DNA of 64,000 bases. Origin: an uncultured Syntrophaceae bacterium. Its GTDB lineage: Bacteria; Desulfobacterota; Syntrophia; Syntrophales; PHBD01. Shown piece by piece: positions 5,687 to 30,022 of this stretch (position 1 is its first letter; each line of letters opens with the position of its first letter). Location of the stretch: the NCBI GenBank assembly GCA_964396205.1, contig CAYNEJ010000002.1:2631-66630 (forward strand), read 5' to 3'. The notes under the pieces were generated by a model. That model made no database searches. It was not told where the DNA came from and was given only the letters and a program-made list of their open reading frames with translations. A program made the translations under genes and the position numbers.

Positions 5687-5730
5687 CCCCCTGCATTTCC
5701 GATAGTTCCCTTCTCCCCGGCGGCGGAACG

Positions 5731-8446: not shown

Positions 8447-8475
8447 CATCTCTCCAATTCGCGGTTCGGAGCAGA

Positions 8476-9636: not shown

Positions 9637-9657
9637 TTCGGCCCGTTGTTCGCCCGC

Positions 9658-10377
9658 TCAGCCCCGACCCAGATACTTCTCCCGGTTCTCCAGGAAATTC
9701 CGGTAGAGCCGATAGTTCTCCGTGTCCTCGTATTTTACCGGTGCGATGGGAATGCGGTCGAAGCTGTAGATGACGGCCTCGGGGCAGGCCAGCAGGATCG
9801 GGGAATGGGTCGCCATGATGAACTGGGCATTCCCGGTGTGGCCCGCGGCGGCAAGAACCTCCAGCAACTCCAGCTGGGAGCGGGGCGAAAGGGCCGTTTC
9901 CGGCTCATCCATCAGATACAGGCCGCGGATGGCGTAGCGGGCGCGGAAGAAGGACAGCACCGACTGGCCGTGCGACTGGGTCAGAAAAGAGCGGCCCCCC
10001 AGGTAATCCAGCTGGCCCGGGTCCGCTGCCGCCCACTCCTCGATGATCCGTGCAAAGTCCCGAAACACGGAGGATCCGAAAAACGAACCCGGCACACGGC
10101 CGTCGGTCCATTCCACGGAGATATATTCGCAGAACCGCTTTTCATACGGATTGCGCCTGATCCGCCTTCCCTCGACGGCCTGCCAGATATGGATGCCGCA
10201 GCGCCGGGCGACGGCCTCCAGCAGGGTGGATTTGCCCGTACCGTTTTCCCCGGTGAAGAGCGTGACAGGGGCCTCGAAGCGGAGTTCCAGGGTCCGCTGG
10301 AAGGCGGGAAGGTGAAACGGATAGGTGTCCTTAACCGGGTAACGTTCCGGGTGGAATGAGACGCCCTTCAGGTGCAT
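9658..10377 (-). CDS. AAA/ABC-like ATPase (AAA_21-type), stand-alone
   Basis: Internal ATG 10377 of ORF 9658..11022. Walker A GENGTGKST, Walker B LYLMDEPETALSP, ATHSPILL. Confidence 0.8.
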   Translation of the reverse strand: MHLKGVSFHPERYPVKDTYPFHLPAFQRTLELRFEAPVTLFTGENGTGKSTLLEAVARRCGIHIWQAVEGRRIRRNPYEKRFCEYISVEWTDGRVPGSFFGSSVFRDFARIIEEWAAADPGQLDYLGGRSFLTQSHGQSVLSFFRARYAIRGLYLMDEPETALSPRSQLELLEVLAAAGHTGNAQFIMATHSPILLACPEAVIYSFDRIPIAPVKYEDTENYRLYRNFLENREKYLGRG

Positions 10378-11090
10378 GCCGGCTCCTTTCCTTTTCTGGC
10401 CTCCAGGATGATGTACGGACAGAGCGGGGAAGAGGAGGTGGCGATGTCCTCGAACCCGGCGTCGGCCGCAGCGGCGGCGAGATCCGGCCCGGAGCAGCCC
10501 CGGCCGAAGATGATGTTCCGGAGCCCCCAGAAGAGCAGGGGATCCAGCAGACGGTAGGGGCTCAACCGCTTCATGTAGATCCGGAGCTCTCTGTCCGTCG
10601 TCTCCCCGTCGGTCTCCGACAGGATGATCCACCCGCCGGGACGGAGGACGCGGCGGATTTCCGCCAGTCCCCGCCGCTTGTCCGGCCAGTGTTTGAAAGA
10701 CCCGACGGTCACGACGCCCGCGAAGGATGCATCCGCGAACGGGAGATCCATTGCATCCGCCTGTCGGAAACGGCAGTTCGTGACGCCCTTCTTCCGGCGC
10801 AGGCGCTCGGCAGAGCGGACCTGGGTGATGGAGTAATCGATGCCCGTGATCATCGCCTCCGGACGAAACGCCGCGAGGTTCAGGGCCACGTAGCCCCGGC
10901 CGGTGCCGACATCCAGGTATGCATCCGGGCGGCCGGAGGGCGCCCGCCTGGCGATGTCCTCGAACAGATCGAAGTTCGCCCCCTGGATGTGATGGTTGTA
11001 GACGGGGCCGAGGAGGTTCCACATCCAGCGGGCGTCCCGGGCCTTCGTGAGGATTCTTTTCAGCATGGCTTCGGCGGTGCCGCGGAACAA
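10368..11090 (-). CDS. class I SAM-dependent methyltransferase
   Basis: Motif I YLDVGTGRGYVA, plus RPGGWIILSE. Its 3' end overlaps the ATPase start by 10 nt. Confidence 0.85.
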   Translation of the reverse strand: MFRGTAEAMLKRILTKARDARWMWNLLGPVYNHHIQGANFDLFEDIARRAPSGRPDAYLDVGTGRGYVALNLAAFRPEAMITGIDYSITQVRSAERLRRKKGVTNCRFRQADAMDLPFADASFAGVVTVGSFKHWPDKRRGLAEIRRVLRPGGWIILSETDGETTDRELRIYMKRLSPYRLLDPLLFWGLRNIIFGRGCSGPDLAAAAADAGFEDIATSSSPLCPYIILEARKGKEPACT

Positions 11091-11101
11091 GGGGCGGGCC
11101 T

Positions 11102-13033
11102 TCAGATCTTCAGGCCGACGGTCAGGCCCTCCTCGACGGCCTCCCGGATCATGCGGGGCCGGACGCAGTCACCGATGGTGTAAACTTCCGGGGCCTTTCC
11201 CCGGAAGGCCTCGACAACCGCCGGGTCCAGGCGGAGACCCGCGGCCAGAACAACCGCGTCGCCCTCGATGAATTCGGGGGTTCCCTTCCGGTTCACCTTC
11301 ACGCCCTCCCCGGTGATCTCCTCGACGGTCGTCTGCGTCTCGAGGCGAACTCCCAGCATTTTCAGCATACCCAGGAAAAATGGCCGGTAGCTCGTGGAGA
11401 CGGTGGGCGCCAGGCGGTCCAGCATCTCCAGGACGGTGACGCTCGTGACGCCCCTGGACTTCGCAACCAGGAACTCCGCCGTCTCGCACCCCACCAGCCC
11501 GCCCCCGAGGATGATGACCCGGCCCTGGACGACTTTTTCCCCTGTCAGGACTTTTTCCGCCGGCACGACGTGGCCCGCCTCGACGCCGGGGATGTTCGGG
11601 ACGATGGGGGAGGCCCCCACGGCCAGGATCAGGGCCTCGGGCTGCTCCCGCTCCACGGTCCGCGGATCAAGCGCGGTTCCCAGGCGTATCTCGACGCCCG
11701 CCTTGCGGGCCCGCGCGACCAGGCTCCGGGTGAGGTTTGCGATTTCCTCCTTGTGGGGCGGCAGGCAGCCGATCCGCATCCATCCGCCCGGTTCCGGCTC
11801 CTTCTCGAAAAGCGTGACCCGGTGCCCCCGTTCCGCGGCCGTCAGGGCCGCCTGCAGGCCCGCGGGTCCGCCGCCGGCCACGAAGACCCGCTTTGCCTTG
11901 GCCGCGGGCGTGGAGACGTAGAGCAATTCCTTCCCCGTGCGCGGATTGACGGTGCACCCGGCGGACGCCCCGCAGTGGGGGTCCTTGTAGACGACCATGA
12001 TGTCGGAGAGGCAGTTCCCGCAGGCCAGGCAGGGCACGATCTCTTCGGCTCTCCCTTCCATTGCCTTGTTCGGAAGGTGCGGGTCGGCGATGAGAGCCCG
12101 TCCCATGCCCACGAAATCCGCCTGCCCCTCTGCAAGGATCCGCTCCGCCGTTTCCGGATCGTTGATCCGGTTGGAGGCGATGACGGGAATGCCGACGACG
12201 CTCCGGATCCGGCCGGCCAGGGGGGCGAAGGCCCCCTTCGGCACAATGGAGGCCACGGTGGGAACGCGCGATTCGTGCCATCCCGTGTAGGTGTTGATGA
12301 AGTTCAGGCCCGCCGCTTCCAGGGCCCGGGCCACGATGATCGACTCCTCGATGGTGTGTCCCCCGGGCATCTGCTCCTCCACGTTCAGGCGGACGCCCAG
12401 CGGGAAGTCGTCCCCCGCCTCCCGGCGGATGCTCGCGATGATTTCGAGGACGATGCGCATCCGGTTCTCCAGGCTTCCCCCGTACTTGTCTTCGCGCTGG
12501 TTCGTGATGGGAGACAGGAAGCGGTTCAGCAGGTAACCGGCTCCGACAATGAACTCCAGGGCGTCGAAGCCTCCCTGGCGGGCCCGCCCGGCGGCCTTTC
12601 CGTAATCCTCCACGAGCCCCTGGATTTCATCGATCGTGAGGGCCCGGGGGGTTCCCCGCATCATCTGGTTCGGAATCGCCGAGGGGCCGACAAGCTCGGG
12701 CATGTCGTCCCGGAAAACCATGTGGTAGGACGTGATGAGCTGGCAGGCGGCCTTTGCCCCGTGAGCCCGGATGGCCTCCGTGACCCGCCGGATTCCCGGG
12801 AGATAGCGGTCGTCGAAGACGCCCGGCGCCATGTGCGATCCGGCGTACATGGGGCTGAAGGGGATGATGATCATGCCGGCGCCGCCCCTTGCCCGCTCGG
12901 CGAAGTAGGCGATGAAGCGGTCCCCGACGGTCCCGTCGGGCTCCGAGTATCCCATGGTCATGGGAAGCATGACGATGCGGTTCCTGATTTCCAGGTTTCC
13001 GATGCGTCCGGGGGTGAACAGGTTCTGGAACAT
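11102..13033 (-). CDS. Old-Yellow-Enzyme-family NADH:flavin oxidoreductase fused to FAD/NAD(P) domain (2,4-dienoyl-CoA reductase-like)
   Basis: N-terminal TIM-barrel OYE pattern (LFTPGRIGNLEIRNRIVMLPM). A Cys cluster (CLACGNC...C) and the C-terminal Rossmann motif VFVAGGGPAGL. Confidence 0.9.
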   Translation of the reverse strand: MFQNLFTPGRIGNLEIRNRIVMLPMTMGYSEPDGTVGDRFIAYFAERARGGAGMIIIPFSPMYAGSHMAPGVFDDRYLPGIRRVTEAIRAHGAKAACQLITSYHMVFRDDMPELVGPSAIPNQMMRGTPRALTIDEIQGLVEDYGKAAGRARQGGFDALEFIVGAGYLLNRFLSPITNQREDKYGGSLENRMRIVLEIIASIRREAGDDFPLGVRLNVEEQMPGGHTIEESIIVARALEAAGLNFINTYTGWHESRVPTVASIVPKGAFAPLAGRIRSVVGIPVIASNRINDPETAERILAEGQADFVGMGRALIADPHLPNKAMEGRAEEIVPCLACGNCLSDIMVVYKDPHCGASAGCTVNPRTGKELLYVSTPAAKAKRVFVAGGGPAGLQAALTAAERGHRVTLFEKEPEPGGWMRIGCLPPHKEEIANLTRSLVARARKAGVEIRLGTALDPRTVEREQPEALILAVGASPIVPNIPGVEAGHVVPAEKVLTGEKVVQGRVIILGGGLVGCETAEFLVAKSRGVTSVTVLEMLDRLAPTVSTSYRPFFLGMLKMLGVRLETQTTVEEITGEGVKVNRKGTPEFIEGDAVVLAAGLRLDPAVVEAFRGKAPEVYTIGDCVRPRMIREAVEEGLTVGLKI

Positions 13034-13308
13034 TTCCTTCTCCTTTCGATTGGCTCCGAGACGGAATGAGCATCCGGTACGTGAATCGGCTGCTTTCGGG
13101 CGTTCGAGGAGCCGTCCGTCAGGATTCCATACCTGAATCCGGGTCGTGCTTCAATCCCTGATGACGTCGACCGGCATGATTTCCCCGGCCGACCCGGCCA
13201 TGCACACGGGCGACATGCCGTCTCCCCCGGCGCCCTCTCTTTTCTTCCCGCGTCCTCGCCACGGTATCCGTGAAGATGTTCAGGATTGTTTATAGAAAAG
13301 GATATGGA

Positions 13309-13324
13309 TGTGATCTTCATCACA
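13309..13324. promoter_or_regulatory. perfect CRP/HcpR-type palindrome TGTGA-N6-TCACA
   Basis: TGTGAtcttcaTCACA read directly. It sits in an AT-rich stretch, with TAATAT at 13344-13349 placing the site near -41.5. It is 97 nt upstream of GTG 13421. Confidence 0.55.
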
Positions 13325-13420
13325 GACATCAACTGCATTTTCATAATATTCGGCGTGGGAATTCGAAATGGCAGGGGGATTCAGAAGGTGGAGTCACCCG
13401 GACCGGAGGCGGAGGAGGCG

Positions 13421-13621
13421 GTGGGAGAAAAGCTGGTGCGCATCTATGAACTCGTGACCGAGAAGACCGGTCTCCATGGCAGGCTCGAACTTGCCGTGAA
13501 AACAGGGATATCCATGAGCAAGGCCGTCGAGGTGGAGGATACGGAAGAGCTCGTGCACAGGTTCAAAAATGCGGCAAGTGATGTCTACGAAGCGTTTTGC
13601 GGAAAAAAGCGTCATAACTGA
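13421..13621 (+). CDS. 66-aa protein, paralog 1 (HTH-like core ELAVKTGIS)
   Basis: GTG 13421 after GGAGGAGG. Colinear with the 66-aa ORF 15004..15204, with 29/66 identical ungapped by my count. Confidence 0.7.
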   Translation: MGEKLVRIYELVTEKTGLHGRLELAVKTGISMSKAVEVEDTEELVHRFKNAASDVYEAFCGKKRHN

Positions 13622-13632
13622 TCCGGCAGGAG

Positions 13633-14514
13633 ATGGGGCCCGTGGAAAGCGCGACCAGGAGAGATCTCAAGTTGATCGTGGACAACGAAGACTTCGCGGA
13701 AGGCCTGTCGCAAGCGGACAGGCCGGCCTCTAAAGAGGAAATGCACCGCTGGCCGATCTGCGGCCTGCCGGTGGGGAGCTTCCTGCAGGTGATCGCCATG
13801 GACCAGCAGACCTGCATCCTGGAAGTCTATCAGAGCGCCGATCGCCAGGGCCGCTTCTGCTTTGTTCAGGGATCCCTTTATGACGCTGTCTGCAACAGCC
13901 TGGAGGGAGAAGAGGCCGCGCTGGAGATGGTGTCCTGGGAGAGCGTCCGCCTCAACATCCGGCAGATTGTCGATGCCGGCGGCTTTGCGAAGAAGATCGA
14001 CAAGAGCCTCATGTCGATCCTGATGGAATCTTCAAGGCGCCGCGATGAGGCGGCGGACGCGCACGGCGGCACCGAGAAGGAGAAAACCGCGGCGGAGGAC
14101 CCTGGCGGCGGGGGGGAAGAATTCAAGAAATGCCTCCGCATTCTTCGGGAGGACATGGGGGATGCGCTCATCTCGGCAAGCGTTGCCGACCTTTCCACGG
14201 GGAACGTCCTGGCGTCGCATCACAACCGAAAAACGCTGGAAACCGCACAGCTTTTCATGAAGCTGACGGCTTCCCTCCGGATGGCCTTCGAAAGAGATCC
14301 CGAACAGAAGCGGCTCGGCGGCCATTACATCCTGAACCTCAGGGAAGGGCAGACGCTCATGGTCCTGCTCTTCGACGAGCATCAGCTGGGTCTCCTGTTC
14401 GACAACGCCAAATGCTCATTGGGCCTTGTCCTGAATGCCATTGTTCCAAAGGTTGCCAGGGCATTCCAGGAATGCGGCTGTTCAGCCGCCTCCCGGGATG
14501 CACGGTCCGGATGA
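13633..14514 (+). CDS. PATAN/DUF4388 domain protein fused to a Roadblock/LC7-like domain
   Basis: N-terminal half GLPVGSFLQVIAMDQQTCILEVY...GRFCFVQGSLYDA...GEEAALEMVSWESVRLNI fits DUF4388. The C-terminal half is colinear with the 124-aa downstream protein. Confidence 0.8.
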   Translation: MGPVESATRRDLKLIVDNEDFAEGLSQADRPASKEEMHRWPICGLPVGSFLQVIAMDQQTCILEVYQSADRQGRFCFVQGSLYDAVCNSLEGEEAALEMVSWESVRLNIRQIVDAGGFAKKIDKSLMSILMESSRRRDEAADAHGGTEKEKTAAEDPGGGGEEFKKCLRILREDMGDALISASVADLSTGNVLASHHNRKTLETAQLFMKLTASLRMAFERDPEQKRLGGHYILNLREGQTLMVLLFDEHQLGLLFDNAKCSLGLVLNAIVPKVARAFQECGCSAASRDARSG

Positions 14515-14610
14515 CCGACGGGCGAGGGGGCCGTGTCGAGGGGTCCCCCGGAAGATGGGTGTCGAGCGGCTGTTCAGTAAACAATTCAATATTTCTAAAG
14601 AGGAGGCGTG

Positions 14611-14982
14611 ATGAACATACAGAAATTGAATGGTTGTCTGGAAGGATTGAGGAAGGACCTGGGGGACGGTCTCCTGGCATCGAGCATCGTCTCCACGGAG
14701 GACGGACAGGTACTCGTGGCGACGGAAAGATCCAACACGGCCGGGGCCACCCTGCTGAATGAAATTACGGCCTCCATCCGTGATGGCCTGAAGACATACC
14801 CCGTGGAGCTGGGACAGTACTATTACATCGATGTCGCGGGGAACATGGGCATTCTCGCCATTCCCTTCGGGGACTACCAGTGGGCGATCGTCGTCAACAA
14901 GAAGCAGGTCAAGCTGGGACTGCTGTTGAATGTCGTGCTGCCCAGCATCATCAATGCATTCGAAGATGCAGTCGTGTCTTAG
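14611..14982 (+). CDS. Roadblock/LC7-like protein (divergent)
   Basis: ATG 14611 after AGGAGG. LGDGLLASSIVSTEDGQVLVA...LGLLLNVVLP, paralogous to the C-terminal half of 13633..14514. Confidence 0.75.
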   Translation: MNIQKLNGCLEGLRKDLGDGLLASSIVSTEDGQVLVATERSNTAGATLLNEITASIRDGLKTYPVELGQYYYIDVAGNMGILAIPFGDYQWAIVVNKKQVKLGLLLNVVLPSIINAFEDAVVS

Positions 14983-15003
14983 AAAAGGCGGAGGGGAGGG
15001 ACG

Positions 15004-15204
15004 ATGGGAGAAAAAATGGTTCGGATCTTTGAGATTGTCATGGAGCAGGCGGGTCTGAAAGGGCGCATGGAGCTGGCGACCCGGACGGGAATATCCCAGA
15101 CCATGGCGGCCCAGATGAAGGATACCGAGGAGTTGGTAAAAAAATTAAAGGAAAACGCCAACTTGATCCTTGATCGGAGCAACCTGAATACCATCGGCCA
15201 TTGA
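15004..15204 (+). CDS. 66-aa protein, paralog 2
   Basis: ATG after GGAGGGGAGGG. MGEKMVRIFEIVMEQAGLKGRMELATRTGISQ...DTEELV matches 13421..13621. Confidence 0.75.
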   Translation: MGEKMVRIFEIVMEQAGLKGRMELATRTGISQTMAAQMKDTEELVKKLKENANLILDRSNLNTIGH

Positions 15205-15338
15205 TGAACGACGCTTCGCGGAGGGCCCTTGCGAGGGTCACGCCGGGTCGCGCCGCCGGTCATGAAGCCGAGAGGAGATGAAATGAATGCCGAGCAATCC
15301 CTTCACAGGGGGACCTGCCGTCGGCGGGAGAGACAACC

Positions 15339-15728
15339 GTGAGTCTGATCCTGGGTCGGCAGCATCTTGATAAGATCCAGGACTCCCTGCAGAAGAACCT
15401 GATCGGGTCGGGTGTCCGGAATGCCATGCTGATCGATATGGCCGGCAACGTCATTGTGACGGTCGACAACGGCGGGGAGGCGCGCGACATGTATTCGCTG
15501 GCCGCGCTGGCGGCGGCCAATTTCGGGGCCATGTGCAGCATGGCCCGGATCGTCGGGGAGGATGAATTCTCCCTCCTGTTTCACAAGGGGCAAAAAGAAA
15601 ACATCTATTTCACCAGGGTGAACGACGAGTTTCTCCTGATCAACATCTTCAACAACGAAGTGACCCTGGGATTTCTCAGGCTGAAAATGGCCCAGGTCAT
15701 CGAAGAATTGTCCCGTGTTCTGGACTGA
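15339..15728 (+). CDS. mglB: MglB-type Roadblock/LC7 GTPase-activating protein
   Basis: LAALAAANFGAMCSMARIVGEDEFSLLFHKGQKENIYF...VTLGFLRLKM is colinear with the Myxococcus MglB core as I remember it. Confidence 0.85.
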   Translation: MSLILGRQHLDKIQDSLQKNLIGSGVRNAMLIDMAGNVIVTVDNGGEARDMYSLAALAAANFGAMCSMARIVGEDEFSLLFHKGQKENIYFTRVNDEFLLINIFNNEVTLGFLRLKMAQVIEELSRVLD

Positions 15729-15800
15729 GATCCTTTCATCCGGCCGCCGTCAGGCCGGATGAGCAAGGCATGTGAGGCATCAGGCGGGGAGGAAACGGAT

Positions 15801-16421
15801 TTGGCATTCATCAACCTGAAGGACCGGGTCATTCAAGCCAAGATTGTCTACTACGGTCCCGGGCGATGCGGGAAAACGACCAATCTGGAATTCATCTACA
15901 GCAAGTGCCGCGAGCAGATCAATTCCGAGATGGTGACGGTCAAGACGCAGGGTGACCGCACCCTGTTCTTCGATTTCTTCCCGTTCGATATCGGAAAAAT
16001 CGCCGGATACGATGTGAAAATCCAGCTGTACACCGTTCCCGGCCAGGTGAAGTACAATTCAACGAGACGGCTGGTGCTCAAAGGCGTGGACGGCGTCGTG
16101 TTCGTGGCGGATTCCGAGGCGGAGCGGCGAAGCAAGAATGTGGCCTCCCTGATGAATCTCCAGGAGAACCTTGCCCTTTACAACAAGAACATTTTCGAGA
16201 TGCCGCTGGTCATGCAGTACAACAAACGGGACCTTGAAAAGCAGGGGATCGAGACGCTGGATATCGAGACCCTGGAGAAAGATCTCAACGATGTGCTGAA
16301 GGCACCGTCATTCGGGGCCAGTGCGCTGGACGGAGACAATATCGTTGCGACCCTGAAGAAAATCATATCGCTGACCATGTACTCCCTGGAAAAGGAACTG
16401 GAGAACGGGGATTGGCAATGA
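15801..16421 (+). CDS. mglA: MglA-family Ras-like small GTPase
   Basis: P-loop YYGPGRCGKTT, switch I DRTLFFDF, switch II YTVPGQV, and NKRD. TTG 15801 (after GGGGAGGA) aligns with the Myxococcus MglA N-terminus (SFIN...). ATG 15759 is the track alternative. Confidence 0.9.
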   Translation: MAFINLKDRVIQAKIVYYGPGRCGKTTNLEFIYSKCREQINSEMVTVKTQGDRTLFFDFFPFDIGKIAGYDVKIQLYTVPGQVKYNSTRRLVLKGVDGVVFVADSEAERRSKNVASLMNLQENLALYNKNIFEMPLVMQYNKRDLEKQGIETLDIETLEKDLNDVLKAPSFGASALDGDNIVATLKKIISLTMYSLEKELENGDWQ

Positions 16422-17569
16422 AAGAGTCGTCATTCGTTCGGGAAGTGGAAGATCGTCTGGATGTCCTGTTCGGGATCGGCTTGGATTCCTCGGATCGCGG
16501 CGGGAAAGCGGGACCGGATCACGGGAATGCCAGGACCATTCTGGAAAGCATCACCGCCGAATCCGCCGGGGAGAACTTGGAAGCCACGGCGGTTCTGAAC
16601 ATGGACGATCCGTTGAACGGCAGGGAAGACTCCGTGCCGCCCGGTCAGGAGAAACGATATCACGTCCTTTTGGAGGAAGCCGGGGAGGAGGCGGATCCGG
16701 AACCCGGGGCCGTCGATCACCCCGTTCTCGAGGAAATCTCCGCCGTCACCGAGCCGCCCGAGCCGGACGCGGACGGGGGCCGGCGCTTCGAGCGCATTTT
16801 CGGTGATATCGGATCGTACACGCCGGCGCTGTTTTCCCCGCTTAAGAACCTGAAAGGCATTCTCCTGTCCCTGGAGTGGGAAATCAGCGATCCCCTGTTG
16901 AACAGGCTGGACGTGGAGCTGAACGGATTGCAGGAGCTGTATCGCCACGAGCGGACCATTCTCGGCTTCCTGCGGATTCTTCGCTTCCTGGAACGCTACA
17001 TCCGGGTCAAGCGGGGGGATTCCCATACCGAGTCCGTCAAACTGCTTTTTTCCGTCTACGACGACCTGGAGCGGGTCATTCTGTCCAAAACCATGGTGGA
17101 AGAAATAAAGCGGTCCATCCTGGTGGTCGATATCGGGAAATACAGGGATTGGGTGGAGAACATCGACCTCTCCTTCTGTACCGGGCCGGGCGCCGGGGAT
17201 AGCGGCGCCCCCGCGATTGCGGAAGAACCGGACGACGCGTCCGGGGTCCTGCCGTCTTTCGGCATGGAGGACGCCCTGCCTGCGATGGAGCCGTCCCTGC
17301 CTGCGATGGAGCCCCCGCTTGTGATGGAGCCCCCGCTGCCTGTGATGGAGCCCCCCCCGGGCCCCGCTCCCGGTGTGCTGCCGTCTGCCGAAGCCGGAGT
17401 CGAACGGTCCGCTGACGGAAGCGAAAGCGCCGGGACGGACCTCTCCGCCGTGCTGAAAACGATGGCACCGCACGAGGCCTTTGCCTTTGCCCTGGAGGAG
17501 ATGAAAAAAACGATCCATGACGAGTTCGAGGCGCTCCGGGCGGAGATTCGGATCCGGGGGGCGCGTTGA
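16418..17569 (+). CDS. acidic/proline-rich hypothetical protein with helical core and LPAMEP repeats
   Basis: ATG 16418 overlaps the mglA stop (ATGA). No family recognised. The central region LLSLEWEISDPLLNRLDVELNGLQELY... looks helical. Confidence 0.7.
   Translation: MKESSFVREVEDRLDVLFGIGLDSSDRGGKAGPDHGNARTILESITAESAGENLEATAVLNMDDPLNGREDSVPPGQEKRYHVLLEEAGEEADPEPGAVDHPVLEEISAVTEPPEPDADGGRRFERIFGDIGSYTPALFSPLKNLKGILLSLEWEISDPLLNRLDVELNGLQELYRHERTILGFLRILRFLERYIRVKRGDSHTESVKLLFSVYDDLERVILSKTMVEEIKRSILVVDIGKYRDWVENIDLSFCTGPGAGDSGAPAIAEEPDDASGVLPSFGMEDALPAMEPSLPAMEPPLVMEPPLPVMEPPPGPAPGVLPSAEAGVERSADGSESAGTDLSAVLKTMAPHEAFAFALEEMKKTIHDEFEALRAEIRIRGAR
17276..17356 (+). repeat. four tandem 18-21 nt coding repeats (LPAMEP-type)
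   Basis: ctgcctgcgatggagccgtcc / ctgcctgcgatggagcccccg / cttgtgatggagcccccg / ctgcctgtgatggagcccccc. Confidence 0.85.
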
Positions 17570-17839: not shown

Positions 17840-18985
17840 ATGAATGTCCCGAATGAAACATTCGACTTGATTCGTGAAAAACAGGAACTGGATGCTTTTT
17901 TGTCGACATTCATGACCGTGAGTCCGCCTCTGCCCGTGGAAGAAGCAGGGGAATCCGGTCCTGTGCCGTGCATTGCGCCGTCTCCGGCGATATACGAGGA
18001 AAGCGACAAACCCGCTTCGGTCGGAAAAGAGACCTCCCCGGACGGTATGCCGGAGACACCGGTTTCGGTTGCACCGGCCGTTTCTCCGGCAGAGGTCGAA
18101 CCGGTTTCCATTGCGGAACCGGTTGGGGCCGCTGCCCCGGACAGCGGGCGGGAGGAATCGCTCTCCCCGGAAGAGGAGCCGGAACAGCGTCCGGAGCCTC
18201 CACAGAATCAGGCGCCCCCGGTCTTCGCGGAGCTTCTGCCGATCGACCGGCCCGCCGGGGCTCCGGAAAGCCGCAGCGACGTCCCGGAGATGGACCGGAC
18301 CTTGAGGCTTGAGCGAGGAAAGTTGGAGGCCGCCGCCTCCGCCGAAGCGGAGGGAGACGATAAAACGAACAGCGGGGAAGCGGCGAACGGCGTCTCCGTT
18401 TCCGGCAACCGGGCAAAACACCGGCGCCCGTTGCTTCTGTCGGCCCTGCTTCTGTGCCTGGCTCTGGCCCTTCTCCTGCTCGGCTACTCGTGGCTTCGGC
18501 CCTCCAGCGGGCAGGGGGCGGTTCAATGGCTGTCCCTGCATGTTCCTGTTGCCCGTCAATACCTGGAAGTCGGACAACCGCATCCGAATCCCGCGGGCAG
18601 GCAGGTCGGGATTGTCAACCTTCAGCAGCGGCTCGTCAGAAACGAGGTCCTCGGCCGGGAGATCCGGATCATCGAGGGAACGGCGTTCAACCGGGGACAG
18701 GAAAGCATCTCGGGAATCCGAATCAGGGGCGAGCTTTACGATGCCCAGGGCCGGCTTGCCGCCGCGCGGATGTCTTTCTGCGGAAGCATGATGGCCGACG
18801 ATCACCTGCAAACCCTGGGAGAGCAGGAACTCCGCCTGGCGCTTTTGGCTGCACAGGCACCCCCCCAGGCGTACAGCGCGGTTCCACCCGGGGGCCAGAC
18901 GCCGTTCATGATCGTGTTCATCCAGGAGCCGCCGGGGATCGTCCGGGCCATGGTGGAGCCCGTCGGCATGGAAACGGTCCGCTGA
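17840..18985 (+). CDS. single-pass membrane protein with C-terminal DUF3426-like domain
   Basis: Long acidic/Pro-rich N-terminal region and TM helix LLLSALLLCLALALLLLGY. The C-terminal beta-rich region IRIIEGTAFN...IRIRGELYDAQGR...FMIVFIQ is typical of DUF3426. Confidence 0.7.
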   Translation: MNVPNETFDLIREKQELDAFLSTFMTVSPPLPVEEAGESGPVPCIAPSPAIYEESDKPASVGKETSPDGMPETPVSVAPAVSPAEVEPVSIAEPVGAAAPDSGREESLSPEEEPEQRPEPPQNQAPPVFAELLPIDRPAGAPESRSDVPEMDRTLRLERGKLEAAASAEAEGDDKTNSGEAANGVSVSGNRAKHRRPLLLSALLLCLALALLLLGYSWLRPSSGQGAVQWLSLHVPVARQYLEVGQPHPNPAGRQVGIVNLQQRLVRNEVLGREIRIIEGTAFNRGQESISGIRIRGELYDAQGRLAAARMSFCGSMMADDHLQTLGEQELRLALLAAQAPPQAYSAVPPGGQTPFMIVFIQEPPGIVRAMVEPVGMETVR

Positions 18986-19116: not shown

Positions 19117-21429
19117 ATGCAAGAAGCAAATCATTCTGAAAAATCAAACCATTCCAGCGAAATCAACGAACTGGAAGAGATTCTCCGCCTCCAGAACGAG
19201 CTTCAGGACATCACCAACGAGATTTATGCCGCCCAGGGCCTGGCGCAGATATTCACCGACTGCAGCAGAAGGATCGTGAATCTTTTCCGGGTCGAAGCGG
19301 TGAATATCTATGCCGTCGACAAGCAGCGGAGGGAAATCTATACCATCATCAAGGCGGGACACCTGTTCCGGGAGCAGCGGATGGCCATCAACAACCGGTC
19401 GATTCCCGGTTATGTCGCCGATAACGGCTTTGCGATCAACATCGCCGACATTCACGACCAGGCCGAGATGAAAAGCCGCTGCAAGGGACTGGACCTCGCC
19501 GGCGACCGGGATGCCCGTTCAAACACCCGTCTCAGGCAGGTCATGGCCATGCCCATTATCCATGAGGGTGAGGTCATCGGCGTCATCGAGGTGATCAACA
19601 GGCCGGGACGGGAAGGAAGATTCGTCGAGGAAGAACCGGTTTTGCTGCAGGAGATCTCGGAAGTCCTCGCCATCGCGTTCTCCAATCACAACCGGTATGC
19701 CGGCCGGCGGAAAACGCGTTTCGATTCCCTCATCCGGAAAGGGTTCCTGAAGGAAGAGGACCTCGATCAAGCCCTGGAGGAGGCCCGGGAAAAGAAAGAG
19801 ACCATGGAAGACTTCCTGATGAGAAAATTCGGCATCTCGAAGGAAGATCTCGGCCAATCGCTGGAAGAGTTTTACCGGTGCAGATTCTTCCAGTTCAGCG
19901 ACAAAATCCCCATTCCCGCGGAACTCCTGGTCCGGCTCAACAAGGAATACCTGCATCGGGAGCTCTGGGTGCCCATCGAGAAATCCGACGGCCGGATTCA
20001 TATCCTGGTCAGCGATCCCGATAACATCATCAAGCGGGACATGATCGAAAATCTCCTGAAAACGAAGGATATCCGGTACGATGTCGCCCTTCCGGAGGAC
20101 ATCTCCAGGTTCATCGATTATTTCTACCAGTCCCATGGGGATGAAACGTCCATCTCGGACATCATCGGCAGGCTGGAAAACCCCGAGGAGGGCGAGGAGG
20201 AAGGCGAGGAAGAGGCCGTTACGGAATCGGACAGCGCGATCATGCTGCTCGTCAACAAGATCATCAACGATGCGGTCGGCAGGCGGGCGTCCGATATTCA
20301 CATCGAACCCAATATCGGCCGGAGGAACGTGGAGGTCCGCTTCCGCATCGACGGCGACTGCTCCGTATACCAGACCGTGCCCTTCAGCTATCGGGCCGCT
20401 CTTGTCTCGCGGATCAAGATCATGTCCAACCTGGACATCACCGTGAAGCGGATCCCCCAGGACGGGAAGATCAAGTTTCGCCGGAATGGAAGCGATGAGA
20501 TCGAGCTGCGCGTGGCGACGCTGCCGACCCAGGGGGGAGTCGAGGACGTCGTGATGCGGCTTCTCGCCAAGGGGGAAACGCTGCCCTTGGAAGCCATGGG
20601 CATGCTGGACCGGAATTATGAGGAACTCCTCAAGGTCTGCGAAAAGCCGTACGGCATGATCCTCGTGGTCGGGCCGACGGGCTCGGGGAAAACGACCACT
20701 CTCCACGCGGCCCTTCGTCATATCAACACCCCGGAGAAAAAGATCTGGACGGCGGAGGATCCCGTGGAAATCACCCAGTACGGACTCCGGCAGGTCCAGG
20801 TGCAGCCCAAGATCGGCTTCGACTTTGCAACGGCCATGCGGGCCTTTCTCCGAGCCGATCCGGACGTGATCATGGTGGGGGAAATGCGCGATTTCGAAAC
20901 GGCCAAGACCGGCGTGGAGGCCTCTCTGACGGGTCATCTCGTCTTCAGTACGCTGCACACGAACAGCGCCCCGGAAACCATCATTCGGCTCCTCGACATG
21001 GGCATCGATCCCCTGAACTTCGCCGACGCCCTCCTCGGCGTCCTCGCCCAGAGGCTGGTCCGGACGCTGTGCAAAAACTGCCGCGAACCCTATCATCCCA
21101 GCCGGAAGGAATACGACGAAATGGCGGAGAGTTACGGCAGGGAACGGTTTGAGGAGCTGGCCGTCTCCTACACGAACGACCTGACCCTGTACCGGCCCCG
21201 GGGCTGCGACCTCTGCGACCGGTCAGGATACAAGGGACGCGTGGGCATCCACGAGCTCCTCATCGCCAGCGACGGTGTGAAACGGCTCATCCAGAAAAAC
21301 GAAACCGTCGAGACGCTGCGGGAGAAGGCCATGTCCGAAGGGATGTCCACACTCCTCCAGGACGGCATTCAAAAAGCCCTTCGGGGCATTACCGACTTCC
21401 GGCAGGTCCGGAGGGTCTGCATCAAGTAG
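19117..21429 (+). CDS. GAF domain-containing GspE/PilB-family secretion ATPase
   Basis: ATG 19117 within ORF 18454..21429; the upstream part overlaps the previous gene. The GAF-like N-terminal region is followed by a T2SSE_N-like region. Walker A GPTGSGKTT, Walker B DPDVIMVGEMRD, tetracysteine CKNC...CDLC. Confidence 0.9.
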   Translation: MQEANHSEKSNHSSEINELEEILRLQNELQDITNEIYAAQGLAQIFTDCSRRIVNLFRVEAVNIYAVDKQRREIYTIIKAGHLFREQRMAINNRSIPGYVADNGFAINIADIHDQAEMKSRCKGLDLAGDRDARSNTRLRQVMAMPIIHEGEVIGVIEVINRPGREGRFVEEEPVLLQEISEVLAIAFSNHNRYAGRRKTRFDSLIRKGFLKEEDLDQALEEAREKKETMEDFLMRKFGISKEDLGQSLEEFYRCRFFQFSDKIPIPAELLVRLNKEYLHRELWVPIEKSDGRIHILVSDPDNIIKRDMIENLLKTKDIRYDVALPEDISRFIDYFYQSHGDETSISDIIGRLENPEEGEEEGEEEAVTESDSAIMLLVNKIINDAVGRRASDIHIEPNIGRRNVEVRFRIDGDCSVYQTVPFSYRAALVSRIKIMSNLDITVKRIPQDGKIKFRRNGSDEIELRVATLPTQGGVEDVVMRLLAKGETLPLEAMGMLDRNYEELLKVCEKPYGMILVVGPTGSGKTTTLHAALRHINTPEKKIWTAEDPVEITQYGLRQVQVQPKIGFDFATAMRAFLRADPDVIMVGEMRDFETAKTGVEASLTGHLVFSTLHTNSAPETIIRLLDMGIDPLNFADALLGVLAQRLVRTLCKNCREPYHPSRKEYDEMAESYGRERFEELAVSYTNDLTLYRPRGCDLCDRSGYKGRVGIHELLIASDGVKRLIQKNETVETLREKAMSEGMSTLLQDGIQKALRGITDFRQVRRVCIK

Positions 21430-21737: not shown

Positions 21738-22508
21738 TTGCAAAAGAGTGAAATCCGTGCCTCCGACCTGTTTGAGGCCTGTCATATCCTTTTCGGGGAC
21801 CAGACCGACGTCTCCGTTCAATTCCTGAACAATTACCTTCAGTTGTCAGGTTTGAAGGCGGCTTACCGGAAGAGGGCCCGGGAGACCCACCCGGATCGCG
21901 CCCTCTCGCTCGCCGTCGAATCCAGCATTCTCGAGGAGCAGTTCAAGCAGGTCCAGTCCGCCTTCGAGCGGCTTCGCCTCTATCTGGAGAATCCGTCCCG
22001 GTTTCGGCTGATCGAGGGAAATGGGCGCCGTGCAGCTCCCTCCGCGTCGAGGGAAGATGTGCCGCTCAAAAAGAGGGCGGCGCGGATGCAGGACCATGTC
22101 CATACGGGGCCGATCCCCGCGGGCAGGCTTCTCTTCGGGCGATATCTCTATTACTCGGGCCTGATCAGCCACCGGATCCTGATTGACGCGGTGGTATGGC
22201 AGAAGCGGCAGAGACCCCTGCTCGGGATGATCGCCTGCCGGTGGGGCTGGCTCTCCCGGGGAGATGTCCTGGATATCCTGAAGCAATGCCGGGCCAGAGA
22301 GCGTTTCGGTGAATGCGCCGTCCGCCTCGGGTATATGGACGTCAGGCAGCTGCATCGCCTGACGACGTGGCAGAAGATGCTGCAGCCCCGATTCGGGGAT
22401 TTCTTCGTCTCCAGGGGGATCTTGACGGCCGGGCAGATTGACTGCCTGGCAAAGGATCACCGGCTGCACAACTGGACCGGTCGAAGAACCCCGAGAAAGC
22501 GTTCGTGA
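21738..22508 (+). CDS. J-domain (DnaJ-like) protein with two tandem MshEN-like repeat pairs
   Basis: J-domain YRKRARETHPDRA (HPD motif). The C-terminal half has four 24-residue xLGxxhhxxGhhxxxxLxxxhxxQ-like units spaced 5/4/5 residues apart. Confidence 0.8.
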   Translation: MQKSEIRASDLFEACHILFGDQTDVSVQFLNNYLQLSGLKAAYRKRARETHPDRALSLAVESSILEEQFKQVQSAFERLRLYLENPSRFRLIEGNGRRAAPSASREDVPLKKRAARMQDHVHTGPIPAGRLLFGRYLYYSGLISHRILIDAVVWQKRQRPLLGMIACRWGWLSRGDVLDILKQCRARERFGECAVRLGYMDVRQLHRLTTWQKMLQPRFGDFFVSRGILTAGQIDCLAKDHRLHNWTGRRTPRKRS

Positions 22509-22520: not shown

Positions 22521-23231
22521 ATGGCAACCATGAAACAGCCGGCCATGCCGATTCGTTCTGACTCCCTTCTCCAGGAGCTTCCCATTTTCCGGGGCCTCCC
22601 GGGAGGGGACGTCGCCGAGATCCGGATGATGATGGGCGAGCGGCATTTCCAGCGGAACGAGGTGATCCTTTTCGAAGAGGACACTCCGCGCTTCCTCTAC
22701 GTGATCTACGAGGGGAGAGTGAAGGTGGCGCAGGTCGACGAGGAGGGGCGGGAACACATCCTGGCCGTCCACAAGCGCGGAGATTTCTTCGGTGAGATGG
22801 CCCTCCTGGACGGCAAGACCTCCCCGGCGAGGGTTGTGGCCCTGGAAGAGACGCGTGTGGGCTTCCTCGGACGGACGGATTTCGAGGCCCGTTTTCTGAA
22901 AAATCCCATCGCCGTCCGGCAGATCATCTCCCTGCTCTGCGAGCGGCTCCGTGATTCCTGGTTCATGCTCAAGGTCCTGAATCTGCAGCGGGCGGAAGAC
23001 AGGGTCCGGGCGGTCCTGGGCCACATGGCGAGCCGCTTCGGGTCGAGGGACGCCCGGGGGACGGCGATCCGGCTCCGGATGACCCACAGCGAGCTCGCGG
23101 ATTACGCCTCCCTTTCCCGCGAAACCGTCAGCCGGATCCTCAAGCGTCTGGAGCAGGCCGGGGAGATCTCCTTTCTCGAAAAAAGAAGAATCCTGATCAC
23201 GCCGAGTTTTCAAAAAATCGATTTTGTGTGA
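22521..23231 (+). CDS. Crp/Fnr family transcriptional regulator (CRP-like recognition helix)
   Basis: cNMP-binding fold (FFGEMALLDG) and C-terminal HTH SLSRETVSRILKRL with the R-E-x-x-x-R pattern of E. coli CRP. No FNR-type N-terminal Cys cluster. Confidence 0.9.
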   Translation: MATMKQPAMPIRSDSLLQELPIFRGLPGGDVAEIRMMMGERHFQRNEVILFEEDTPRFLYVIYEGRVKVAQVDEEGREHILAVHKRGDFFGEMALLDGKTSPARVVALEETRVGFLGRTDFEARFLKNPIAVRQIISLLCERLRDSWFMLKVLNLQRAEDRVRAVLGHMASRFGSRDARGTAIRLRMTHSELADYASLSRETVSRILKRLEQAGEISFLEKRRILITPSFQKIDFV

Positions 23232-26064: not shown

Positions 26065-26093
26065 TTGACAGGGCGGGAATCGTTTTTTATCTT
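26065..26093 (+). promoter_or_regulatory. sigma70-like promoter
   Basis: TTGACA, 17 nt, TATCTT, the same hexamers as at 8418. This implies the track start TTG 26065 is not the real start. Confidence 0.35.
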
Positions 26094-26130
26094 CAGGGCG
26101 CGCGGAGCCGCTGGATCGCCCCCGCTGTTC

Positions 26131-27255
26131 ATGGATCTCCCGGAGGCGCTCCCGGCAGGGTGCGGCAGGGGAAAGAGCGATGCTCTCCTGCTCCCCGCGG
26201 GCGTTTCCTTCATACTCGAAACCGGAAAGGACCTTCCCGTGAGCGTGAAACATTTTCCCCAGGCCCTTCTCCATTACGGCCTTTCCCTCACCGCCCAGGT
26301 GATCAGCCTGTGCATGGCCGTCATCCTGATCTCCACCGCATATTCGCTGACCGTTCCCCGCCTGGCTCCATACGGCATATCGATGGGGAAAGACCACCGA
26401 TATGCCAGGGCCGCCATCACCCTTGAACAGACGATCACCAAACCGGTCCGCGCGGTGGTTCCCATCCGGATCGGCGGCCATGACATGACGCCATGGATCG
26501 TCCTGGTCCTGTCGTTCGTTTTCACCTTCTGGTTCAACACCCTGAGCTACCGCTATTTCTACGAGGGGCAGTACCATCGCTACCGGAACAAGGTCGATGA
26601 GATGAAGAGCCGGCTGCGCATCTCCGATCATGCGATGCGCGCCATGCCGATCGGCCGGAATCTGGATCAGCTCAAAACGGCGAACAGGAAGGAGCGCGAG
26701 CAGATCATCCGGGAGTTTGCCGAGGCGAAGCGAAAGCTCGACCAGCTGGGCCGGGATCTGGCCTTTCTGTCCATCGACATCGTCGATTCCACGGGCATGA
26801 AGCAGGGCGAGGACAAGGCCGTCGTTCAGAACGATTTCACCCGGTACCGCCAGTTCGTCGGCGGGATCCTCGGCGATCACGGGTGCCTGAAGTCCACATG
26901 GACGCCCGACGGGGTCATGGCCTGCTTTTCCAGCGTCACGGATGCCGTCAGCGCCGCCCGGGGCGTCATCCATGGCCTGGAAGGCTTCAACCGGGATCTC
27001 AAGCAGCTCCGGAGGGATTTCACGGTCCGCTGCGGGGTGAACTCGGGATTCGTCATCTTCGACGAGGCGACGCCCCTCGAGGAGATCAGCGATCCCGCCA
27101 TCGACATCGCGGGCCACATGCAGAAACATGCCGTGCCGAACTCCATCGGCATCCCGAAACCCGTCATCGAGGCGCTTTCCGGGGACAGCGGCTTCGTACC
27201 GTCGGGCAGGACAATCGACGGCTATGAGGTGTACGAGTGGAAGAAAGGCGGATGA
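26131..27255 (+). CDS. membrane-anchored class III adenylate/guanylate cyclase
   Basis: Two hydrophobic segments and a coiled-coil precede the cyclase domain FLSIDIVDSTGM...TPDGVMACF...RCGVNSG. The start is uncertain (26065/26131/later). Confidence 0.8.
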   Translation: MDLPEALPAGCGRGKSDALLLPAGVSFILETGKDLPVSVKHFPQALLHYGLSLTAQVISLCMAVILISTAYSLTVPRLAPYGISMGKDHRYARAAITLEQTITKPVRAVVPIRIGGHDMTPWIVLVLSFVFTFWFNTLSYRYFYEGQYHRYRNKVDEMKSRLRISDHAMRAMPIGRNLDQLKTANRKEREQIIREFAEAKRKLDQLGRDLAFLSIDIVDSTGMKQGEDKAVVQNDFTRYRQFVGGILGDHGCLKSTWTPDGVMACFSSVTDAVSAARGVIHGLEGFNRDLKQLRRDFTVRCGVNSGFVIFDEATPLEEISDPAIDIAGHMQKHAVPNSIGIPKPVIEALSGDSGFVPSGRTIDGYEVYEWKKGG

Positions 27256-28393: not shown

Positions 28394-30022
28394 TTGAAAA
28401 ACCCACCGGCAGGCGGAGACATGACGGCAAGCACCCTGGAGTTTCAGACCATCCTCGAAAACATGATCGATGTGGTCGTGATTCTCGATATGGACGGTGT
28501 CTTCCGGACCGTCAGCCCCTCCGTCCGGTGGATGCTCGGCTACGAGCCGGCCGATATGACCGGGACGGTCTGCTTCGATTACCTCTTCCCGGACGATCGG
28601 GACCGGGTCGTCCGGACCTTCCGGAGAACGCTGGAAACCGACCGGCAGACGGAATCATTCCGGTTCCGCCATGCCGACGGACGCTTTGTCTGGCTCGAGA
28701 CGGCCGCGCGGGCGGTCTGGAAGGGAATCGATCTCCAGGGGATTGTCGTCTCCGCCCGCGACATCACGGATCGCAAGGCCGCCGAGGCGAAGCTCCGCCG
28801 GAGTGAACAGCAGTATCGGCTGCTGGTCGAAAACACGATGGACTATGTCGCCCGCATTCATCTGGACGGCACCGTCCTGTTTGTCTCCGACGCCGTCGAA
28901 TCGATTCTCGGTCATCTTCCGACGGAGATCGTCGGCGGCCACTTTCTGGATTTCGTCCACCCGGAGGACCGGGCTTCCGCCGACCAAATCTTTCAGCAGG
29001 CGCTTGCGGAAGGAAAACAGGGAAGTGTGGAGTGCCGCCTTCGCGGAAAGGACGGCCTCTACCGGTGGATGGAAGTCCGGGGCAAGGTCTTCCGGAATGA
29101 CCTTACGGGCCGTCTGGAAATCATCTCCGTATCCCGCGACGTCACGGCAAGGGTGGAGATGGAGCAGGCACTGCGCCGGGCGGAGAAGGAATACCGGGAC
29201 ATCTTCAACAACGCCCTGGCCGCGATCTACCGGAGTGTGCCCGAGGGGCGCCTGGTCATGGCCAACGAGACGGCCGCCCGGATTCTGGGATACTCCTCTG
29301 CCGTGGAGCTGATCCAATCCGTCACGAGCATTGGGGACCAGATCTATCAGGACGGAAGAGAACGCGAGCGGGTCATCGGTCTGCTTGAAAAGCAGGATAG
29401 CTGTGTCGTGGAGATTCCCTACCGGCATGCGAACGGATCCATTACCTGGTCCGTTCATCACATCCGTGCCGTCCGGGATGAGTCCGGCAGAATTCTCCAT
29501 TTCGACGGGGTCGCCCAGGACATCACGGAACAGAAGAAGGCGGAGGAGAATCTCCGGATGACGCTCAACAGCCTGGAGGACCTCGTCCGGGAGCGCACGG
29601 TCGAACTCCATGATGTCAACACGGCCCTCCGGGTTCTCCTGGACCGGAGCAAGGAGGACCAGAGGATCCTCGAGGAGAGGCTGCGGCAAAACGTGAACGA
29701 GCTGCTCATGCCGATCCTGGACGAACTCAGGTCCTGCGGTCTGAATGAGAAAGGGATTCTTTTCCTGGATCTGCTGCAATCGAACCTGCGGGAAATCACG
29801 TCTCCGTTTCTGTCCAGGTTGACCTCCTCCTGCAAAAGCCTGACACCCCGGGAAATCGAAGTGGCCGGCATGATCCGGGAGGGAAAGAAAACGAAGCAAA
29901 TCGCGGAGTTGCTTGGTATAAGCGCGGTCACGGTGGATACGCACCGGATCAATATCCGCACCAAGCTTGGGTTGAGCGGCGAAAAAGTGAACCTCCGGTC
30001 GCATCTTCTCTCCATGGCCTGA
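28394..30022 (+). CDS. multi-PAS LuxR-family transcriptional regulator
   Basis: Three PAS-like repeats (each with a ...RDITDRK/RDVTAR/QDITEQKKAEE end), a coiled coil, and the C-terminal LuxR HTH LTPREIEVAGMIREGKKTKQIAELLGISAVTVDTHR. Confidence 0.9.
   Translation: MKNPPAGGDMTASTLEFQTILENMIDVVVILDMDGVFRTVSPSVRWMLGYEPADMTGTVCFDYLFPDDRDRVVRTFRRTLETDRQTESFRFRHADGRFVWLETAARAVWKGIDLQGIVVSARDITDRKAAEAKLRRSEQQYRLLVENTMDYVARIHLDGTVLFVSDAVESILGHLPTEIVGGHFLDFVHPEDRASADQIFQQALAEGKQGSVECRLRGKDGLYRWMEVRGKVFRNDLTGRLEIISVSRDVTARVEMEQALRRAEKEYRDIFNNALAAIYRSVPEGRLVMANETAARILGYSSAVELIQSVTSIGDQIYQDGRERERVIGLLEKQDSCVVEIPYRHANGSITWSVHHIRAVRDESGRILHFDGVAQDITEQKKAEENLRMTLNSLEDLVRERTVELHDVNTALRVLLDRSKEDQRILEERLRQNVNELLMPILDELRSCGLNEKGILFLDLLQSNLREITSPFLSRLTSSCKSLTPREIEVAGMIREGKKTKQIAELLGISAVTVDTHRINIRTKLGLSGEKVNLRSHLLSMA

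Follow-up and report, generated by a model that had tools for sequence, protein, structure and literature searches.

A Syntrophales J-domain protein with tandem MshEN_N-type modules, a candidate cyclic di-GMP-responsive Hsp70 co-chaperone

The 64,000-nucleotide stretch of DNA from an uncultured Syntrophaceae bacterium analysed here (GenBank assembly GCA_964396205.1, contig CAYNEJ010000002.1, positions 2,631 to 66,630; hereafter the window) encodes a protein of 256 amino acids, referred to as the J protein, which combines an N-terminal J domain with a C-terminal half composed of two consecutive MshEN_N-type double-motif modules. MshEN_N is a 53-residue receptor module for cyclic di-GMP (c-di-GMP) first defined in Vibrio cholerae MshE (VcMshE; Wang et al. 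2016). We propose that the J protein is a class-III-type, c-di-GMP-responsive co-chaperone of Hsp70 using its C-terminal tandem MshEN_N bundles for targeting or regulation, a reading to which we assign a probability of roughly 0.6. With the same degree of confidence, we consider it a free-standing member of a Syntrophales protein family and not a dedicated partner of the GspE-type ATPase encoded beside it. The open reading frame (ORF) and its exact translation, as quoted in an earlier note on this DNA, were confirmed, and a 98% identical homologue (P0001) from a Syntrophales metagenome-assembled genome is annotated with identical start and length. The features of the gene and its surroundings are listed in Table 1.

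Tandem MshEN_N-type modules behind a J domain

The C-terminal half of the J protein is built, as the earlier note had described, from four units of 24 residues each, which span residues 132–241 (nucleotides 22131–22460) and are separated by spacers of 5, 4 and 5 residues (KRQRP, RARE and KMLQP). Such a periodicity greatly exceeds chance expectation: when motif positions 2–21 are expressed as a relaxed core pattern (hG..hh..[GAS]hh....h...h), all six reading frames of the entire window together contain five matches, three of which fall into these 110 residues, and 20,000 shuffles of residues 122–250 produced a mean of 0.0075 matches without ever reaching three. Unit 3 misses the relaxed pattern at a single position because Thr209 replaces the leucine of the family. 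Alignment of units 1+2 with units 3+4 by hhalign on the basis of a 121-sequence family alignment yielded a probability of 93.2% and an E-value of 2.9e-7 over 51 columns in register, which identifies the region as a two-unit module that has been duplicated internally. Each of the resulting modules A and B comprises two motifs and a 5-residue spacer (KRQRP inside 1+2, KMLQP inside 3+4), and the 4-residue segment RARE links the two modules.

The assignment of the modules to MshEN_N is borne out by profile, sequence-to-structure and fold comparisons. The NCBIfam model NF053729 (c-di-GMP_motif, 'cyclic di-GMP-binding domain-containing protein, MshE-related'; cutoff 38 bits) scores the whole J protein at 39.4 bits and matches all 147 family representatives at E ≤0.01, the best with an E-value of 3.1e-24. 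Taken singly, module A, aligned to profile positions 2–52, reaches 26.3 bits and module B 21.4 bits, compared with 77 bits for a truncated VcMshE control. A search of the PDB with the single sequence returned, apart from J domains, only MshE (E 0.39–1.2) and PilF (E 1.3), which is not significant alone, with module B in register with VcMshE residues 5–54. Because these matches were merely suggestive, a profile of the C-terminal half was compared with all PDB sequences; it identified Thermus thermophilus PilF with an E-value of 8e-8 and V. cholerae MshE with 1.2e-3, and the 16 matches up to an E-value of 10 were mostly PilF, MshE or PilB chains.

The AlphaFold2 (AF2) model of the C-terminal half consists of eight helices (predicted local distance difference test, pLDDT, 95.5; predicted template modelling score 0.79), of which four form the confidently predicted unit of module A. 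Among the 21 PDB matches obtained for this model with Foldseek, 13 are MshE or PilF's GSPII-B domain, almost all in c-di-GMP-bound form, with root-mean-square deviations (rmsd) of 1.6–2.3 Å over 56–58 columns, sequence identities of 24–30% and probabilities mostly between 0.8 and 0.99 (0.57 for one apo PilF chain). The MshE structure 5htl_A was found with both the C-terminal-half and the full-length model at probabilities of 0.99–1.00 and rmsd values of 1.3–1.6 Å over 57–58 columns, the lower value being that of the full-length model, and PilF GSPII-B at probabilities of 0.8–0.97 and 1.9–2.3 Å. As a module of only ca. 55 residues entails high Foldseek E-values, above 1 for these MshE and PilF structures, the assessment relied on probability and rmsd values and on how exclusive the matches are, and not on E-values.

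Pairing of units 2+3 into a module was considered as an alternative. The family profile indeed aligns units 2+3 to MshE residues 6–62, and NF053729 places unit 3, in two fragments, as a second motif. Nevertheless, the arrangement (1+2)(3+4) is favoured by the hhalign register, by spacer lengths of 5 residues and by residues 183–189, a longer non-helical stretch in the model, so that the alternative appears disfavoured.

The Pfam profile MshEN/T2SSE_N (PF05157), which the earlier note had suggested for checking the repeats, does not match the J protein at E ≤1, a result that we judge to be a false negative. In the neighbouring ATPase the same profile aligns to residues 484–562 downstream of the motif region and thus largely represents the MshEN_C/T2SSE_N1 subdomain. 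No such α/β subdomain follows the bundle in the J protein according to the PF05157 search and the AF2 model, which is all-helical in the C-terminal part and leaves only 15 residues beyond unit 4. PF05157 was therefore rejected as a test of the repeats.

The J domain at the N-terminus, likewise recognized in the earlier note, is substantiated by the HPD motif, profile matches at the level of the family and the predicted fold. His51-Pro52-Asp53, situated between helices II and III, is invariant in 83 homologues, with Pro52 and Asp53 conserved to at least 90% among the 147 representatives, and helix II is basic (KAAYRKRARE). Pfam DnaJ (PF00226; gathering score 27.8 bits) matches 128 of the 147 representatives at E ≤0.01, and the family profile detects solved J domains with E-values of ca. 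3e-6. The AF2 model contains helices at residues 8–19, 27–33, 36–49, 52–58 and 62–84 with pLDDT values above 90, and Foldseek relates it to the J domain of 2qsa with a probability of 0.99 and to several J domains with target-normalised TM-scores of 0.48–0.61. Between the J domain and module A lies a basic linker which is presumably disordered, as residues 95–116 have pLDDT values below 50 and the length of the linker differs among homologues.

The protein belongs to a large family. The C-terminal-half profile retrieved 478 clusters (50% identity) at E ≤1e-30 and 1,411 at E ≤1e-10, and the members of the top 150 clusters are nearly all 230–330 amino acids long with the module at the C-terminus. 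Relatives are present in at least 278 GTDB species genomes; the best 80 of these 278 species loci stem almost exclusively from Syntrophales (Smithella, Smithellaceae, Syntrophaceae), the remainder from a few Desulfatiglandales, Desulfobacterales and Syntrophorhabdaceae. Current database names are 'J domain-containing protein', 'DnaJ domain-containing protein', 'CbpA' or 'hypothetical'. The earlier note had called the architecture unusual, which holds for the published record but not for Syntrophales, where it is common. The MshEN architecture table of Wang et al. (2016) lists no J-domain fusion, the terms 'DnaJ', 'J domain' and 'chaperone' occur nowhere in the corresponding supplement, and a full-text search of the accessible literature found no description of a combined J domain and MshEN_N. 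The J protein represents a new combination of two well-known modules, with a variant motif.

Table 1. Features of the J-protein gene and of its surroundings (positions refer to the window)
Feature	Position	Strand	Remarks
J-domain-(MshEN_N)x2 gene	21738..22508	+	256 aa; TTG start; GAGGGA Shine-Dalgarno sequence 5 nt upstream
J domain, residues ~8-84	21759..21989	+	Pfam DnaJ 26.7 bits, HPD, Foldseek, AF2
HPD, residues 51-53	21888-21896	+	
Basic disordered linker, residues ~93-126	22014..22115	+	AF2 pLDDT, homologue length variation
MshEN_N-like module A, units 1+2	22131..22289	+	NF053729 26.3 bits; pLDDT >93
MshEN_N-like module B, units 3+4	22302..22460	+	NF053729 21.4 bits; hhalign against module A
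Unit 1, residues 132-155			LFG...WQ; position 24 = Q155
Unit 2, residues 161-184			LLG...QC; position 24 = C184
Unit 3, residues 189-212			RFG...WQ; position 24 = Q212
Unit 4, residues 218-241			RFG...DH; position 24 = H241
Family-specific H244-N245, end of last helix	22467..22472	+	Family conservation
PatA_N/DUF4388 protein	13633-14514	+	ATPase cluster
Roadblock/LC7 protein	about 15339-15728	+	ATPase cluster
Ras/Arf-like small GTPase	about 15801-16421	+	ATPase cluster
385-aa Pro/Glu-rich protein	16412-17569	+	ATPase cluster; no Pfam match
DUF3426 protein	17840-18985	+	ATPase cluster
GAF-MshEN-T2SSE (GspE/PilB-type) ATPase	19117 (about)..21429	+	770 aa; context only
Degenerate MshEN_N motifs of the ATPase	19714-19872	+	TRF...A and TME...F
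Crp/Fnr-type transcription factor binding cyclic nucleoside monophosphates	22521..23231	+	12 bp after the J-protein stop codon

Ligand-site residues and the case for cyclic di-GMP binding

The contacts of c-di-GMP in MshEN_N are known from VcMshE (PMC5013675) and PilF (PMC11731258). Position 1 of each motif is Arg, Lys or a large hydrophobic residue which stacks on a guanine, and positions 2, 17 and 21 form a hydrophobic clamp (PMC5013675; PMC11731258). The backbone amide of Gly3 is hydrogen-bonded to a guanine, and the VcMshE exchanges G11L and G40I abolish binding (PMC5013675); Gly10 forms the turn and Gln24 contacts ribose and phosphate by hydrogen bonds (PMC5013675; PMC11731258). In PilF, the Q190E exchange weakens binding ca. 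80-fold, and the extended consensus for positions 1–3 is (R/K/L)LG, with a hydrophobic position 1, as in Leu196 and the K167L variant, conferring the highest affinity (PMC11731258). A relaxed form of the motif permits [QNKRYWST] at position 24, MshEN domains that do not bind the nucleotide are common, and one such non-binder, XpsE, carries Val and Leu at the Gly3 positions and keeps the fold (PMC5013675).

Conservation of these residues in the J-protein family was assessed across 146 representatives clustered at 50% identity. Gly3 is conserved to 89, 100, 92 and 99% in units 1 to 4 and Gln24 to 99% in units 1 and 3 (Gln155 and Gln212), which means for module A that Gly134, Gly163 and Gln155 are all retained. 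Positions 1–3 read LFG, LLG, RFG and RFG and thus conform to the pattern of Arg, Lys or Leu, a hydrophobic residue and Gly; across the family position 1 is hydrophobic or Lys/Arg, consistent with (R/K/L)LG, and that of unit 1 resembles the high-affinity PilF variant. Hydrophobic residues occupy positions 17 and 21 in units 1, 2 and 4, the corresponding pair in unit 3 being Leu205 and Thr209. The second motif of each module deviates from the canonical form at position 24, so that Gln is found once per module and not in both motifs, and the Arg/Lys of unit 2 fits only the relaxed motif. Outside the published motif, Trp154 next to Gln155, Arg159-Pro160 of the spacer, Arg184, Arg196 and His244-Asn245 (nucleotides 22197–22472) are near-invariant in the family; they could constitute an additional surface for binding phosphate or a partner.

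Judged from these sequence features, the J protein probably binds c-di-GMP, and we hold this prediction slightly more firmly than the functional proposal built upon it. Binding, stoichiometry and the coupling to DnaK are inferred together in the following scenario: One c-di-GMP molecule might be accommodated per bundle, with its guanines placed between the residues at positions 1/2 and the hydrophobic residues at positions 17/21 and with hydrogen bonds provided by the Gly3 backbone amides and the Gln24 of the first motif. Occupancy of the site would then shift the conformation of the C-terminal half or its binding to a partner, and this shift might gate the place and time at which the HPD-containing J domain stimulates DnaK (Hsp70).

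Several observations weigh against this proposal. Each module alone lies below the NF053729 cutoff and the protein passes it only as the sum of both. The Foldseek E-values exceed 0.1 throughout for both models, and the structural evidence is thus corroborative but not stand-alone. Position 24 of unit 2 is Arg/Lys in 87% of the family and Cys184 in the present protein, that of unit 4 is Gln in just 27% of the family and His241 here, and the PilF double mutant with both Gln residues exchanged for Glu (Q190E+Q218E) does not bind c-di-GMP (PMC11731258). Unit 3 has Thr209 at position 21, where more than 90% of the family carry Leu, Ile or Val. Moreover, this particular J domain falls 1.1 bits short of the Pfam DnaJ gathering score (26.7 versus 27.8 bits), and the gene context reveals neither a DnaK gene nor a client.

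The points concerning the nucleotide site can also be read in the sense that the repeats are degenerate, MshEN_N-derived hairpins without nucleotide binding, comparable to the N-domain of GspE/XpsE, which retains the fold but does not bind c-di-GMP; they would act for the J domain solely by binding clients, by dimerisation or by localisation. The subthreshold module scores, the loss of the second-motif Gln in both modules together with the outliers Cys184 and Thr209, and the frequency of non-binding MshEN domains (PMC5013675) are compatible with such a view, and the conserved Trp154, Arg159-Pro160, Arg196 and His244-Asn245 outside the canonical site suggest another or additional interface. However, the fold can do without Gly3 and Gln24, yet Gly3 is near-invariant in every unit and Gln24 in units 1 and 3, and such conservation speaks for selection acting on the ligand site; the neighbouring ATPase and XpsE, with Phe/Glu and Val/Leu, respectively, at the Gly3 positions, differ in precisely this respect. 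In addition, Arg/Lys at position 24 stays within the relaxed motif (PMC5013675), and some members of the family attain an E-value of 3e-24 with the c-di-GMP motif model. We therefore regard degenerate repeats as unlikely, albeit deserving serious attention. The deviations at position 24 might alternatively reflect another ligand, either a different cyclic dinucleotide such as 3'3'-cyclic GMP-AMP (cGAMP) or a related nucleotide. On this view, the second-motif Gln would have given way systematically to Arg/Lys because the ligand differs. The family pattern at position 24, with Gln, Arg/Lys, Gln and a variable residue, is systematic and non-canonical, and a section title of the MshEN paper states that VcMshEN also binds cGAMP. 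Yet the solved relatives are all c-di-GMP complexes, and conservation is found at the residues that read the guanines, those of the hydrophobic clamp and Gly3 with its backbone, which makes a different ligand highly improbable compared with c-di-GMP.

Gene neighbourhood and the adjacent ATPase

The ATPase gene upstream of the J-protein gene encodes a GAF-MshEN-T2SSE protein, an architecture already contained in the table of Wang et al. (2016). Its two MshEN_N motifs lack Arg1, Gly3 and Gln24, as the earlier note had pointed out, and carry Phe and Glu at the Gly3 positions. The motif region nevertheless scores 31.2 bits against NF053729, which is above either J-protein module and, like these, below 38 bits. 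It is hence the key residues, and not the profile score, that set ATPase and J protein apart; the score predicts binding competence poorly for this motif, as a region devoid of Gly3 outscores modules that possess it.

From this contrast the earlier note had proposed that c-di-GMP sensing may have been moved to the J protein. In the corresponding model, the ATPase has lost its own site, and the J protein would act as a sensor in trans which brings DnaK to the ATPase or to the associated machinery. The degenerate motifs of the ATPase and the same-strand arrangement of both genes, here and at five related loci, speak in its favour. For a broader view, 80 GTDB species loci were inspected for ATPase linkage within 8 kb and 82 loci were used for neighbour clustering. 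ATPase and Crp genes flank the J-protein gene only where the J proteins are at least 73% identical (L002, L005, L007–L009). In 77 of the 80 species loci, with J-protein identities of 38–48%, no T2SSE ATPase is present within 8 kb, the sole exception among the distant loci being an ATPase fragment 7.5 kb away at the locus edge, and the ATPase is also absent beside the homologues P0005 (65% identical), P0027 and P0036. Adjacency to a GspE/PilB-type ATPase is consequently not conserved across the family. At the locus itself, the two genes are separated by 308 bp harbouring a TTGACA-17-TAATTG element that resembles a -35/-10 promoter by manual matching, while a strict scan of the gap for sigma-70 promoters and terminators found neither. 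The J-protein gene is instead coupled to the Crp/Fnr-type gene only 12 bp downstream, with which it is probably co-transcribed, a pairing confined to a narrow clade (L002, L005–L009). The ATPase, for its part, belongs to the upstream cluster with PatA_N, Roadblock, Ras-like GTPase and DUF3426 proteins. Taken together with the lack of a conserved neighbour over the 82 loci, these data render a transfer of sensing from the ATPase to the J protein very improbable, and we retain the assignment of the J protein to a free-standing family.

The neighbourhoods vary to such a degree that they were rejected as a pointer to the client: de novo clustering revealed no neighbour family in more than 30 of the 82 loci, and the largest cluster consists of generic sensor kinases. 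In a Smithella subclade (11–17 of 82 loci, Smithella/Smithellaceae; L001, positions 1–16750), the J-(MshEN_N)2 gene follows a Glycos_transf_2 gene at a distance of ca. 120 bp and has a large MMPL/methyltransferase gene on its other side, with genes for an aromatic ammonia-lyase, a 4HBT thioesterase and Dak2/DegV further upstream. This arrangement resembles clusters that build envelope components of the lipid or polyketide type and may point to the pathway in which a client acts.

Concerning the other genes of the window, the ATPase lies outside any pilus or type II secretion operon and is the last gene of a same-strand cluster following the five upstream genes listed in Table 1. The cluster, which is kept in an 81% identical relative (L002), resembles an MglA/MglB-like polarity module combined with an orphan secretion-type ATPase. 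A signature search detected no DnaK in the window. Two HDOD proteins and a GGDEF-family protein had been reported in the earlier note; the former were found at 49591–50436 (+; E 5e-60, also with an HD domain and an HDIGK motif) and 7374–8216 (−; E 1.4e-10), whereas the latter could not be confirmed. A GGEEF string at nucleotide 14110 was dismissed as incidental because it lies within the PatA_N/DUF4388 protein. The protein meant may be the product of ORF 26065–27255 (+; 396 amino acids), for which Pfam yields no match at E ≤0.01 and a PDB sequence comparison none of significance; it contains N-terminal hydrophobic segments and a C-terminal region that by eye appears similar to class III nucleotidyl cyclases or GGDEF domains (FLSIDIVDSTG...). 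A further possible signalling component near the locus, encoded at 28394–30022 (+), carries three PAS domains and a LuxR/GerE-type helix-turn-helix domain.

Implications and comparison with known systems

In c-di-GMP networks, cyclases and phosphodiesterases usually far outnumber the known receptors. This shortfall is especially apparent in uncultured anaerobes, for example Smithella and the Syntrophaceae, which are key organisms in methanogenic degradation. Extending our proposal from the single protein to its relatives, we tentatively suggest, at somewhat less than even odds, that they form a large family of c-di-GMP effectors, as yet without annotation, of syntrophic Thermodesulfobacteriota whose tandem MshEN_N modules gate the J domain and thereby place the recruitment of DnaK/Hsp70 to specific clients under c-di-GMP control, using a variant motif with Gln, Arg/Lys, Gln and a variable residue at position 24 and the additional elements WQ, QRP and HN. 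If c-di-GMP is indeed bound, the at least 278 species genomes that encode what is currently listed just as a 'J domain-containing protein' would gain an assigned receptor, and a second, independent link between c-di-GMP and Hsp70 would join that of the PilZ-DnaK chaperones of Myxococcus. The natural sequence variants would also serve to refine the MshEN motif and widen the sequence rules for predicting MshEN-type receptors. Two practical lessons concern annotation: the Pfam MshEN model is blind to the ligand-binding subdomain, and an ATPase domain that lacks Gly3 and probably does not bind can be placed ahead of probable binders when profile scores are the sole criterion.

The closest architectural counterparts are tandem proteins which contain MshEN_N only, such as the (MshEN_N)2 protein cce_1044 of Cyanothece, the (MshEN_N)2-CheX protein Glov_2742 and the (MshEN_N)2-REC-ACyc protein MXAN_7396 (Wang et al. 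2016, Supplementary Table 4). They share with the J protein two consecutive modules of 24-residue motifs with 5-residue spacers, the lack of MshEN_C/T2SSE_N1 and a fusion to a non-ATPase output or to none. The J protein differs from them by its output, an N-terminal J domain preceding a disordered linker, by the systematic replacement of Gln24 in the second motif and by the extra invariant WQ, QRP and HN elements. With V. cholerae MshE (5HTL) and the GSPII-B domain of T. thermophilus PilF (8PDK and others), it has in common the predicted four-helix bundle (rmsd 1.3–2.3 Å) with motifs in register and, as regards PilF Leu196 and the K167L variant, the hydrophobic position 1 of unit 1. In contrast to these proteins, it possesses neither MshEN_C nor a T2SSE ATPase and has one Gln per module, and its modules score at 21–26 bits each versus 77 bits for VcMshE.

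As a J-domain protein, it is comparable to DjlA, CbpA and HscB in being short and in connecting one HPD-containing J domain with a C-terminal domain dedicated to targeting or regulation. Matches to NCBIfam models of the DjlA/CbpA/HscB type are weak and restricted to the J domain, since the C-terminal domain of the J protein is unrelated; a Gly/Phe region, a zinc finger and DnaJ_C are all missing. The functionally most similar systems are found in Myxococcus xanthus, where the PilZ-DnaK chaperones CsdK1 and CsdK2 as well as PilZ-DnaJ fusions (PMC10313047, PMC8316039) likewise join a c-di-GMP receptor domain to part of the Hsp70 machinery and thus lead from the second messenger to the chaperone. 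The wiring of a c-di-GMP receptor to Hsp70 therefore has a precedent, although the Syntrophales protein employs a helical MshEN_N bundle instead of the PilZ β-barrel of the Myxococcota proteins and is homologous to them only in its J domain.

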